A stretch of 26,597 nt of DNA from Candidatus Sulfopaludibacter sp. SbA4 (GTDB lineage: Bacteria; Acidobacteriota; Terriglobia; Bryobacterales; Bryobacteraceae): assembly GCA_900290305.1 (NCBI GenBank), contig OMOG01000745.1, positions 8,882 through 35,478 of the forward strand, in the 5' to 3' direction. Under the pieces are notes generated by a model. It was given only the letters and a program-made list of their open reading frames with translations. It did not search any database and had not been told where the DNA came from. Of the stretch, positions 1-2,703 are shown in pieces. The position numbers and the translations under genes are program-made. Numbering within the stretch: position 1 is the stretch's first letter; the number at the start of each line of letters is the position of its first letter.

Positions 1-1503
1 CCCATCCCGCCGTTCCAGACTGACGCCGGCACGGCTGCGCTCGCCAACGGCCTCCGGTCCGATGCCGCGGCGCGGATCGGAACCATCGCATCCAGCCCGC
101 GCACGCGCTTCCGCTTTCTCCCTTTGCGGGATGGCGCGGCAGGCGCGACGCATGTCCTGCAGGCGACGCTCACCGCGTCCGGCGGCCGCACTACGATTCA
201 CGCCCTGCTGACGGACAACCGGACGCGGGTCAACCTCCGCGATTGGACCGCGGAATATGCAGCCGGCGAAATGAAGTACGCGCCCCTGGCGCTGGCTGGC
301 ATCGCCACGTGGGGCCTCCACCTTCCCGCCGCCGCCCAACCGCCCATGCGGAGCGAGGCGTTGGCGGATTACCGCGAAGGCCTGGCGCATCTGCGGAATG
401 TAAACGCCGAGGTGGATGCCGCCCGCGCCGCCATGGAAAAGGCCGTCGCCGCCGATCCGGATTCCGCGGTAGCGCATGCCGGCCTGGCCGAGGCGCAGTG
501 GTTCACTTACTTCCAGACGCACGAGCAGACGTGGCTCGACCGCGCCCTCGAATCGGCGCGCCAGGCGGGCTTGCGCCATCCGGACCTGGCGCCCGTACAC
601 CGCATCGCGGGCTGGCTCAGGTTCAACACCGGCCGCTACGAGCAGGCCGAGGCCGAGCTGCGGCGGGCCATCGAGGTGGAACCGGACAATGACAACGGCC
701 ACCGCCGGCTGGCACGCGTGTTCGAGAAGAACGACCAGTTGGACGAAGCCTTGTCCGAATATAAGCGGGCCGTGGAGCTGGGTCCCTCGAATTACGCAAA
801 CTACCAGGATCTGGGCGCGCTGTACTTCAAGCGCGGAAGGTTCACCGACTCACTTCCCTACAGTCTGAAGGCCGTCGAACTGGGGCCGCAGGAGGCCGGC
901 ACTCACTTTGCCCTGGCGTCCGACTACCTGAACCTGGGCCGCTTCGTGGAAGCCGAGAAGGAGCTGCGGGTCTCGATCGGGCTCAAGGAGACCGCGCCCT
1001 CGGTCCACTCACTGGGGCTGGTGCTGATGTTCGAGGGACGGGACAAGGATGCGGTTCCGTATTTTCAACGCGCGCTCGAGCTGGGTCCGGACCGGTATCT
1101 TTCGTGGATGTACCTGGGGATCGTGTGGAGACGGTTGGGCAATCGCGGCGAGGCCGCGCGCGCCAATCGCCGCGGATTGGATTTGGCCGAGTCGGCGGTG
1201 GCGCGCGATCCACGCAGCGGTTATACTCGTTCCTTTCTGGCGTATCTGTGCAGTCAGCTCGGCAGCCGCGAGCGCGCCGGGAGCGAGATCGCGCAGGCCC
1301 TGCAGCTTTCCCCTCGCGATGCCGACGTCGGCGACATGGCGCTGTGGACCTACGAAGCGCTAGGGCGGCGCACCGACGCTTTGAAACTGGCGGCTACTCT
1401 TTCGCCGGAGCAGTTGGCCTGGCTGAACCAATGGCCGGACCTGGCGGACTTACGACGGGATCCGCAATTCACGCAGTTGTTGAAGGGATATTCGATCAAA
1501 TAA
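1..1503 (+). CDS. TPR repeat protein; the frame is open to the window start, so 5'-partial or an internal start
   Basis: Frame 1 has no stop from nt 1 to the TAA at 1501-1503. There are multiple TPR-like helical repeats (e.g. AEAQW.., AIEVEPDN, AVELGPSNYANYQDLGALYFKRGRF, ALELGPDRYLSWMYLG). An ATG at 271 gives MKYAPLALAGIATWGLHLPAAAQP, which reads as a signal peptide or TM segment, so either a secreted ~410-aa TPR protein or the C-terminal part of a longer (kinase-TM-TPR type) protein. Confidence 0.6.
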   Translation, partial: PIPPFQTDAGTAALANGLRSDAAARIGTIASSPRTRFRFLPLRDGAAGATHVLQATLTASGGRTTIHALLTDNRTRVNLRDWTAEYAAGEMKYAPLALAGIATWGLHLPAAAQPPMRSEALADYREGLAHLRNVNAEVDAARAAMEKAVAADPDSAVAHAGLAEAQWFTYFQTHEQTWLDRALESARQAGLRHPDLAPVHRIAGWLRFNTGRYEQAEAELRRAIEVEPDNDNGHRRLARVFEKNDQLDEALSEYKRAVELGPSNYANYQDLGALYFKRGRFTDSLPYSLKAVELGPQEAGTHFALASDYLNLGRFVEAEKELRVSIGLKETAPSVHSLGLVLMFEGRDKDAVPYFQRALELGPDRYLSWMYLGIVWRRLGNRGEAARANRRGLDLAESAVARDPRSGYTRSFLAYLCSQLGSRERAGSEIAQALQLSPRDADVGDMALWTYEALGRRTDALKLAATLSPEQLAWLNQWPDLADLRRDPQFTQLLKGYSIK

Positions 1504-1515
1504 GGAGAATTGCAC

Positions 1516-1596
1516 ATGGCGCAAGACGACACTCACACAGGCGGGGGGCCGGGGCCCAAGAAGCCTAAGAAACCCGCCAAGAAAAAGAAAAAGTAA
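1516..1596 (+). CDS. 26-aa lysine-rich micropeptide MAQDDTHTGGGPGPKKPKKPAKKKKK (candidate precursor or leader peptide)
   Basis: A near-consensus Shine-Dalgarno AAGGAGA (1503-1509) lies 6 nt before the ATG at 1516 and overlaps the TAA of the upstream gene. The ORF is 26 codons and ends in an (AAG/AAA)n run that is atypical for 65% GC DNA. A GG motif at residues 9-10 precedes a polycationic tail. It lies 58 nt upstream of a C39-like peptidase gene. Confidence 0.35.
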   Translation: MAQDDTHTGGGPGPKKPKKPAKKKKK

Positions 1597-1654
1597 CCTG
1601 CGATCCGGGAACGGGGCCGGCCTCTGCGCCGGTCCCTCTTCCGGGGATATTCCT

Positions 1655-2143
1655 ATGACGCGATTGAATTTCGACATGCGTGCGCAGAAGCTGCGCGAAT
1701 GGTGCTGGGCAGCGGTGTCCGTCAGCATCGAGGCACTCTACGACAAGAATACACCCTGGACCGAATGCAAGATCGCACAGGCCGAATTGGGCCTCTCCTG
1801 CTGCGATTCGGCCGAGCAGTGCAACCAGGTCTTCCGTCTCGATCCTCCCCTCCACCTGCTCGGCCGCCTGCGCGGCAAGCCCATTTCCCGCACGCTGACC
1901 TTCGAGGAAATCAAAACGGAGATCGATGCCGGCCGCCCCGTCGCGGTGCGCGTCGGGTGGCCGGCCGGCGGCGGCCATTTCCTGGTGATTTGCGGCTATG
2001 ACGTTACTCCATCCGGTGTTCAACAAGTCCTGCTGGGCGACCCGTTCTATGGAGACTCGCGTACTGCTTACGACCTGTTTTGCACTTCCTATCAGGGCAG
2101 CGGGACCTGGACCGACACTTTTTTGCTGAAGGATCGAGACTGA
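1655..2143 (+). CDS. stand-alone C39-like (papain-fold) cysteine peptidase domain protein, 162 aa
   Basis: The motif order is Cys in REWCWAAVSV, His in GGGHFLVICGYD and Asp in LLGDPFYG. This parallels the bacteriocin-processing C39 domain (DCGVAAL ... HYYVV ... ADPDPG in ComA-type peptidases). There is no fused ABC transporter. Confidence 0.7.
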   Translation: MTRLNFDMRAQKLREWCWAAVSVSIEALYDKNTPWTECKIAQAELGLSCCDSAEQCNQVFRLDPPLHLLGRLRGKPISRTLTFEEIKTEIDAGRPVAVRVGWPAGGGHFLVICGYDVTPSGVQQVLLGDPFYGDSRTAYDLFCTSYQGSGTWTDTFLLKDRD

Positions 2144-2703
2144 TGAGTTCATCCAACCAACCGTGGGCGGACATTTCTCCCCAGGAGGCATGCCGCAGCG
2201 CCGTAGCGGACTGGATCGGCCGCACGAACTGGGATGGCGATGTGTACCTCCGGTCCTTTATGCTGTCCCTGTATGCGCTGCAGGCCGGCGAAGGACTGGA
2301 AGCGGCCGTGCGAACCGGCTGGAGGGTGCTCATGCCCTCCGCAGGCACCACCCCGCTTTTGGGCCAAATGACGGCCTCGACCGCGACCTCGCCGTCCCAG
2401 ATGATCAGCCTGTCGGTAGGCGCTCGCGCGGGGACGGCGTTCGACCAGTTGAGCCGCGCGCAGGCCATGCCCGAGATGAAGGGGTGCGAATTGCGATGGC
2501 TGAGCATCCCCGGAGTCATATTCGAAGGCTTCTGGCTGCACTCGCAATCGCCCGATCAGCCCGACCTGGTGAGCACTGTCTTCAGCCTCGACGAAGAGTT
2601 GCAGAACCCCGTCTTGACGGTGGACCAATTTCTGCCGATTGTGCGCCAGTACGCTCTCCGGCGGCTGGCATCGGACGACCGCCCGGATTATGGGGAATCC
2701 TGA
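2143..2703 (+). CDS. hypothetical protein (186 aa), translationally coupled to the C39-like peptidase
   Basis: The ATG at 2143 overlaps the peptidase TGA (2141-2143) in an ATGA arrangement. The longer 2080 start lies inside the peptidase gene. The ORF is uninterrupted; no recognisable motifs. Confidence 0.55.
   Translation: MSSSNQPWADISPQEACRSAVADWIGRTNWDGDVYLRSFMLSLYALQAGEGLEAAVRTGWRVLMPSAGTTPLLGQMTASTATSPSQMISLSVGARAGTAFDQLSRAQAMPEMKGCELRWLSIPGVIFEGFWLHSQSPDQPDLVSTVFSLDEELQNPVLTVDQFLPIVRQYALRRLASDDRPDYGES

Follow-up and report, generated by a model that had tools for sequence, protein, structure and literature searches.

A kinase-linked cassette of a Gly-run small protein, a clan-CA cysteine peptidase and an unannotated partner family in Acidobacteriota

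The stretch of DNA analysed here, called the window, comprises 26,597 nucleotides (nt) of Candidatus Sulfopaludibacter sp. SbA4 (contig OMOG01000745.1, positions 8,882-35,478; 63.6% GC). Its first part (1..2703) is the 3' end of a co-directional operon headed by a Ser/Thr kinase gene and ending with three genes: a micro-open reading frame (micro-ORF) encoding a small Gly- and Lys-rich protein, a cysteine peptidase gene and the gene of a partner protein. Kinase, small protein, peptidase and partner are real genes conserved in this order, and the operon occurs in many soil Acidobacteria. Moreover, peptidase and partner form a fixed obligate pair across bacteria and archaea. An initial annotation of this DNA had proposed that the three ORFs constitute a module, and the conservation of the module across related loci bears this out; the kinase and sigma-factor setting, described below, had been missed. 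We rate the cassette as a regulated-proteolysis or peptide-processing module, composed of the following elements.

1..1503, + strand: 3' part of the gene of a transmembrane Hanks-type Ser/Thr kinase with a predicted extracytoplasmic TPR domain, matching many TPR Pfam families.
1501..1508, + strand: Shine-Dalgarno site TAAGGAGA, which includes the kinase stop codon TAA (1501-1503); the next ATG is 7 nt on.
1516..1596, + strand: micro-ORF of 26 aa, MAQDDTHTGGGPGPKKPKKPAKKKKK, with ATG at 1516 and TAA at 1594-1596; a minimal member of type A (see below).
1605..1644, + strand: GC-rich stem-loop between micro-ORF and peptidase, from fold energy.
1655..2143, + strand: 162-aa predicted clan-CA cysteine peptidase (Pfam C70) with an intact Gln-Cys-His-Asp site; catalytic codons Gln11 1685-1687, Cys17 1703-1705, His108 1976-1978 and Asp129 2039-2041.
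2143..2703, + strand: 186-aa alpha/beta partner protein of a large unannotated family, coupled to the peptidase via TGATG.
2721-2797, - strand: tRNA-Met, which closes the cassette unit.

The pairing of peptidase and partner was studied in 160 loci fetched around peptidase homologues, belonging to Acidobacteriota, Actinomycetota, Proteobacteria (Pseudomonas, Photorhabdus, Labrys, Methylocystis, Massilia), Verrucomicrobiota, Planctomycetota, Bacteroidota and several archaea. A single-sequence search with the partner finds three relatives only; partner homologues in the loci were detected by iterative profile searches, the profile being built from locus-derived sequences. The partner adjoins the peptidase or is fused with it in 159 of 163 loci: a homologue lies immediately downstream in 136 and forms an in-frame C-terminal fusion in 22, and the four loci without a partner end within 150 nt of the peptidase. 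In the window the two genes are joined by TGATG, one base being common to the peptidase stop (TGA, 2141-2143) and the partner start (ATG, 2143-2145), and not by the ATGA overlap first reported.

A partner profile searched against 1.8 billion representatives recovers 3,313 clusters (2,115 at E<=1e-10), spread over many bacterial phyla and several archaeal lineages; none of them carries a Pfam domain and those that are named are all 'hypothetical'. The description of the 186-aa protein as having no recognisable domains was correct, and no Pfam model exists for the family. Neither NCBIfam nor the PADLOC anti-phage defence models match peptidase or partner, and a profile search of PDB sequences gives no match for the partner. 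The partner is soluble, without a transmembrane segment, and its predicted structure (predicted local distance difference test, pLDDT, 86.5) consists of two helix-plus-sheet units. A third gene conserved throughout the family was sought, and none was found beyond the kinase clade. The acidity of partners and peptidases, compared with a possible binding of the polycation in mind, does not differ between kinase-linked and other loci.

Rare partner domains stand N-terminal to a GerE-type helix-turn-helix (HTH), a SLATT_2 two-transmembrane effector or a trypsin-like domain. Such fusions to output domains fit a regulatory or adaptor role and suggest that elsewhere the domain serves as a receiver or adaptor; the partner thus behaves like a regulatory or adaptor domain bound up with the peptidase. 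The fusions to SLATT_2, HTH and trypsin-like domains are P0372 (L163, 70-1650), P0377 (L164, 3932-4759) and P0308; in L164 a C70 peptidase gene lies directly upstream of the partner-HTH fusion, and the SLATT_2 fusion is followed by Clp_N and HD-CE genes.

Other architectures of the pair were also observed. The in-frame peptidase-partner fusions include a clade of about 356 aa with a conserved '..DD(T/A)(M/I)GA' C-terminus (L012, L017, L018, L020, L025, L031-L033, L035, L095, L100, L101, L108, L109, L074, L120 and L129, isolates of Labrys, Methylocystis and Sinomonas included); in about 11 of these loci an ABC-transporter ATPase is encoded about 2.7 kb downstream. In proteins of about 510 aa from Actinomycetota and archaea (Bathyarchaeota, Methanomassiliicoccaceae) the peptidase is the C-terminal domain, preceded by a tectonin/DUF2857-like repeat propeller ('DGRLEVFG..D..IWHTWQ..P..GW') and followed by the partner gene (L097 2942-4474, L085, L086, L015, L090, L091, L093, L048, L153 and L113). 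In Pseudomonas triticifolii (L148 2304-8109) and P. asturiensis (L161) the peptidase has a beta-rich N-terminal domain of about 150 aa with a GGGG run, and it is flanked by two proteins of about 190 aa and one of about 955 aa without Pfam match; this looks like a different, also uncharacterised setting of the protease pair.

Sequence and predicted structure identify the 162-aa protein as a clan-CA cysteine peptidase that is intact. The ordered motifs on which the first description was based, WCWAAV (Cys17), GGGHF (His108) and LGDPFYG (Asp129), are present; when aligned with 63 homologues, the catalytic Cys and His are invariant, as is Asp129, and the oxyanion residue Gln11, six residues before Cys17, is nearly so, giving an intact Gln-Cys-His-Asp set. 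The protein had been called C39-like. The likeness holds for the fold and fails for membership of the family. The best Pfam family is Peptidase_C70 (PF12385, AvrRpt2-like; 31.5 bits against a cut-off of 19, 2e-7), with residues 8-145 aligned to positions 9-139 of the 141 in the profile; in fold the protein comes nearest to staphopain (C47). C39_2 (PF13529) gives a partial and weaker match (25.8 bits, residues 78-130), and Peptidase_C39 (PF03412) is not among the Pfam matches of the protein. In Foldseek the AlphaFold model (pLDDT 97.3) finds staphopain best (template-modelling score 0.80) and C39 double-glycine peptidases next, the latter being closest by sequence identity (17-22%). C47, C70, C39, C39_2 and BtrH_N are grouped as close relatives in a published classification (PMC10318531).

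The enzyme shares with the C39 domains of ABC transporters (ComA, PCAT1, LahT150) the papain-like fold and the order Gln, Cys, His, Asp. It differs from them because it is stand-alone, with no ABC exporter fused or adjacent, because its putative substrate has no 15-30-aa amphipathic leader ending in Gly-Gly, and because it has a constant partner of about 190 aa, which C39 domains do not have. Lacking a PF03412 match, a transporter and a leader-type substrate, it is not C39 proper. The absence of an ABC transporter, already pointed out in the initial annotation, is borne out by the neighbours of the window peptidase (kinase, partner and tRNA-Met), and no conserved transporter is found among the neighbour clusters of kinase-linked loci. 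The staphopain-staphostatin operon has the same peptidase fold, but the downstream gene in the window is not a staphostatin. AvrRpt2, a type III effector of the best-matching family C70, is secreted with a self-cleaved N-terminal pro-region, whereas the window peptidase has neither signal peptide nor pro-region and starts 16 residues before the catalytic Cys; some relatives carry Gly-rich N-terminal regions. The catalytic spacings of the two proteins are similar, Cys-His and His-Asp being 86 and 18 apart in AvrRpt2 (PMC11475232) against 91 and 21 here. Four other residues, Cys38, 49, 50 and 56 (window 1766-1822, pattern C-x10-CC-x5-C), are shared by all of 15 close homologues and by at least 90% of the 63 homologues; they might form disulfides, bind a metal or serve as a redox switch.

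Upstream of the peptidase, the 26-codon ORF with a Lys-rich 3' half was correctly recognised; its product is taken to be disordered, with an oligo-Lys tail after the Gly-run. Lys accounts for nine of its 26 codons (P = 1.8e-8 at the frequency of 2.75% measured across 11 window genes), and codons 14-26 have 43.6% GC against the 63.6% of the window. Lys codon usage is ordinary (6 AAG and 3 AAA, compared with 112 AAG and 47 AAA in window genes) and the longest A-run is 5. The Shine-Dalgarno site is strong, as claimed, with a spacing of 7 nt in place of the 6 nt given. TAAGGAGA occurs once in the 26.6-kb window; since a single copy is also found in 17 of 100 shuffled sequences, this uniqueness alone is not significant. 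The site is unchanged in the window, L003 and L002.

The Shine-Dalgarno site, the frame and the Gly-run are conserved upstream of orthologous peptidases. The orthologue in L003 (peptidase 85% identical) is MTQDDTHTGGGPGPKKPKSKPKKPAKKKK, of 29 aa, and that in L002 (peptidase 76% identical) is MPDDTNTGGGGGPKKKKKGAAKKKTAPKKK, of 30 aa, annotated as a gene by JGI; the three small ORFs are separated by in-frame indels and synonymous changes. Further orthologues are found in L008/L009, L083/L004, L084, L005 and L106. When eight pairs of related small ORFs are compared, differences at codon positions 1:2:3 are 65:57:137 (p = 1.7e-10). The micro-ORF is thus a real conserved gene, and purifying selection acts on its amino-acid sequence. 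Neither the 26-aa nor the 30-aa version is present in a collection of 15 billion proteins.

In 40 related loci (41 with the window) the gene just before the orthologous peptidase encodes a small Gly-run protein, or the peptidase carries that protein as an N-terminal fusion. The small protein is restricted to the kinase-linked clade, where each locus has, between kinase and peptidase, a Gly-run small ORF with a good ribosome-binding site or the peptidase-fused equivalent. At least one GGG is present in 29 of 32 small proteins, and three types can be distinguished, types A and C being Lys-rich. Type A has an optional 'MQIEQ...' head, then GGGG and a Pro/Lys tail ending in KKKK; its shortest forms are those of the window, L002, L003 and L008. 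In type B, 'MLIEYKIxF..GVTITQRIEP' is followed by tandem units of 5-10 residues split by GGG and by a hydrophobic 'IIFGPIIV' strand; type B proteins are fused to the peptidase in P0065 (the L062 protein), P0079, P0024 and L039. Type C starts with 'MATKKK...' and has two Gly-runs around '..GSDLK' and a KKKK tail. Homologues reach 210 aa, types B and C spanning 40-210 aa.

Tandem units between Gly-runs are found in many members (GGG-SEDKKGT-GGG, GGG-SGDKLDT-GGG, TGG-SDAGH-TGG), and the N-terminal AQDDTHT-GGG of the window resembles a single type B unit of an acidic short stretch plus GGG. The Lys-rich part of the relatives lies N-terminal to the Gly-runs, C-terminal to them or on both sides. Type A and type B each correspond to a single clade of the neighbour-joining peptidase tree, in which the kinase-linked peptidases stand together without interruption; the small protein tracks the phylogeny of the peptidase and co-diversifies with it. 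Pfam, run on eight small proteins, returns nothing but a meaningless HC2 match (E 0.75). The family of small Gly/Lys-proteins is previously unannotated, and gene callers mostly miss its members.

The spacer between micro-ORF and peptidase (1597-1654) has the 58 nt reported in the initial annotation, which overlooked the hairpin that it contains. This hairpin (1605-1644; -33.1 kcal/mol, z -2.15 to -3.3) starts 9 nt and ends 48 nt past the micro-ORF stop and has an inner stem (1613-1621/1628-1636), an outer stem (1605-1610/1639-1644) whose 3' arm borders on GGGGA, the weak ribosome-binding site of the peptidase, and no U-tract. A GC stem of 9-14 bp, of unrelated sequence, occupies the gap between small ORF and peptidase in seven of eight distinct type A loci (z -1.8 to -4.6; besides the window, L002, L003, L008/9, L083/4, L084 and L005); the exception is L106, whose gap is 18 nt. 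The position of the hairpin is thus conserved and its sequence is not. In types B and C the spacer hairpin is missing; here small ORF and peptidase are translationally coupled, their gaps being -4 to 35 nt. On the + strand no terminator-like site was scored, alternative pairings not having been examined, and the tRNA is the sole match of an Rfam scan.

Of the kinase gene, cut by the start of the window, just the part for the TPR domain is left here; the full gene, encoding an 868-aa Pkinase+TPR protein, is present in the near-identical contig L001. One conserved transmembrane helix follows the kinase domain in all seven orthologues checked, and the TPR part is therefore predicted to be extracytoplasmic. 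Homologous kinase sequence is found in 34 loci and the TPR part in 37, nearly all directly upstream of the peptidase on the same strand. A PF07638 extracytoplasmic function (ECF) sigma factor is encoded near the kinase in 16 loci, just upstream on the same strand except in L160, where it is downstream on the opposite strand. The sigma factor of the kinase-linked loci has QATE where canonical ECFs have DAED. Such a replacement of DAED is what characterises the ECF43 factors that are activated by kinases; an example is EcfP-PknT, which responds to polymyxin, a polycation (PMC8999054). The loci thus resemble the known pairs of ECF43-type sigma factor and Hanks kinase (EcfP-PknT, EcfK-PknS) in these features and differ in having the arm of small protein, peptidase and partner, for which no link was found in the literature on these pairs; moreover, in the lineage of the window the gene upstream of the kinase, seen in L001, is not a sigma factor.

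Both the enzyme superfamily and the pairing of sigma factor with kinase were known before, while the family of the partner, that of the small Gly/Lys proteins and the cassette that joins them appear undescribed. The initial annotation did not recognise the arrangement as a described system, and none was found in Pfam, NCBIfam, PADLOC or the searchable literature. The result defines an obligate two-gene, sometimes fused, cysteine-protease module whose second part has more than 3,000 clusters, no name and no Pfam model, and which in Acidobacteriota is linked with an ECF43-like sigma factor and a transmembrane kinase of the Ser/Thr type.

For the function of the cassette we tentatively favour, short of calling it probable, a reading by analogy in which the small protein is a substrate of the peptidase or its detached pro-region. 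C39 peptidases cleave after Gly-Gly and AvrRpt2 self-cleaves at a Gly-Gly bond, and because of this analogy the peptidase is proposed to cut the small protein at or next to its Gly-run. The partner would bind the peptidase and regulate it, as an inhibitor or an adaptor; the hairpin might raise the ratio of small protein to enzyme or couple their translation; and the proteolytic step might modulate kinase and ECF-sigma signalling or be its output. The fusions of type B proteins to the peptidase, the co-diversification of clades, the Gly-runs and the intact active site support the substrate role. If it is correct, the cassette offers a handle on the modulation of kinase-activated sigma factors in an abundant, poorly studied soil phylum, and a stand-alone Gly-run-directed protease with a natural minimal substrate.

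Several observations weigh against this proposal. A cleavage-site consensus was sought around 62 Gly-runs and none was found, and because of this absence the runs could be mere flexible linkers. The window peptide has no amphipathic leader of the kind recognised by C39 enzymes. The small protein is absent from most members of the peptidase-partner family, the partner accompanying the peptidase in about 120 loci without an upstream small Gly-run ORF, so the core pair must have another function. The four conserved cysteines of the peptidase, in a protein without export signal, are unexplained, and the fold evidence for the partner, taken from its model, is weak.

Two alternatives come next, both rather unlikely, and both outweigh those put forward in the initial annotation, a bacteriocin and, after it, a regulatory leader. 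The pair could be an effector with its inhibitor, the peptidase being toxic, the partner conferring immunity and the small protein accessory or unrelated. The similarity of the peptidase to papain-like toxins and its variable N-terminal modules, for example the tectonin-like propeller, agree with this idea, which is weakened by the fusions. A role for the small protein as an adaptor or a phosphorylation target of the kinase, at the Thr/Ser beside the Gly-run and without being cut by the protease, is about equally doubtful; the peptidase pair would then act elsewhere (for example on kinase, sigma or envelope proteins). The small protein is indeed restricted to loci with the kinase, Ser or Thr directly precedes 22 of the 62 Gly-runs with TGG motifs recurring, and the start of the micro-ORF is packed against the kinase stop codon. 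However, the small protein is fused to the peptidase and not to the kinase, which links it physically to the protease, the Thr is not universally conserved, and the cassette has no FHA domain or other phospho-reader.

A slightly less credible extension of the substrate reading is that the cassette is a self-contained peptide-signalling device, in which the peptidase would cut the Gly-run protein into short peptides read by the TPR part of the kinase or by the partner: an acidic heptamer and a polycation in the window, several tandem 5-10-mers in type B. In RRNPP cassettes a TPR receptor gene is followed by a small pro-peptide gene. The cassette is similar in architecture only, with a TPR sensor gene followed by a small ORF whose product is possibly processed by a protease, and it differs in that its TPR is on a kinase and extracytoplasmic, its small protein has no export signal and its protease is encoded in the cassette itself. 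If peptides were signals here, the partner family would be a new peptide- or protease-responsive receiver domain, wired elsewhere to a DNA-binding HTH, a SLATT pore or a serine protease.

The first of the two explanations offered originally, that cleavage after THTGG releases a secreted polycation, GPGPKKPKKPAKKKKK, from a precursor resembling bacteriocins or ribosomally synthesised and post-translationally modified peptides, with the third gene acting in immunity, modification or export, is improbable. The peptidase is related to C39 in fold and sequence, and the Lys-rich tail resembles cationic peptides; operons for precursor peptides typically have a hairpin behind the small structural gene, as this one does. 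Against this, transporter, leader helix and signal peptide are all missing, just eight residues (MAQDDTHT) precede the Gly-run, the Lys-rich segment changes sides among relatives, and types B and C, of 40-210 aa, are not obviously antimicrobial. The third gene, for its part, encodes a soluble obligate partner without a transmembrane segment, present in thousands of loci without such peptides.

The second, a ribosome-stalling leader in which translation slowed at Lys/Pro/Gly codons controls the peptidase via the hairpin, is very improbable: the place of the hairpin next to the ribosome-binding site and the poly-Pro of some relatives (L044, L105) would suit it, but the amino-acid sequence is conserved, homologues are long or fused to the enzyme, Lys codons are ordinary, types B and C have no hairpin, and the single hairpin has no U-tract, no attenuator-type terminator being found among the pairings examined.

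The remainder of the window places the cassette in its chromosomal context. A minus-strand housekeeping block (2721-6057) adjoins it, with tRNA-Met, the HflX GTPase (3089-4351) and Hfq (within 4442-4927), and for this reason the cassette belongs to the core chromosome and not to an obvious island. The same strand may encode, judging by translation alone, a DksA/TraR-type zinc-finger protein (within 5245-6057). Farther on, a 392-aa ORF without Pfam match (24598-25776) follows the gene of a DnaE-type polymerase alpha subunit (21436-24588) with PHP, pol3 alpha, finger, HHH and OB domains. At 18286-19937 the gene of a HipA_2-like kinase shares 4 bases with a DUF3037 gene, the two likely forming a toxin-antitoxin-like pair, and a gene for a YhaV-family endonuclease toxin (Pfam 1.4e-51) is found at 20369-20848.

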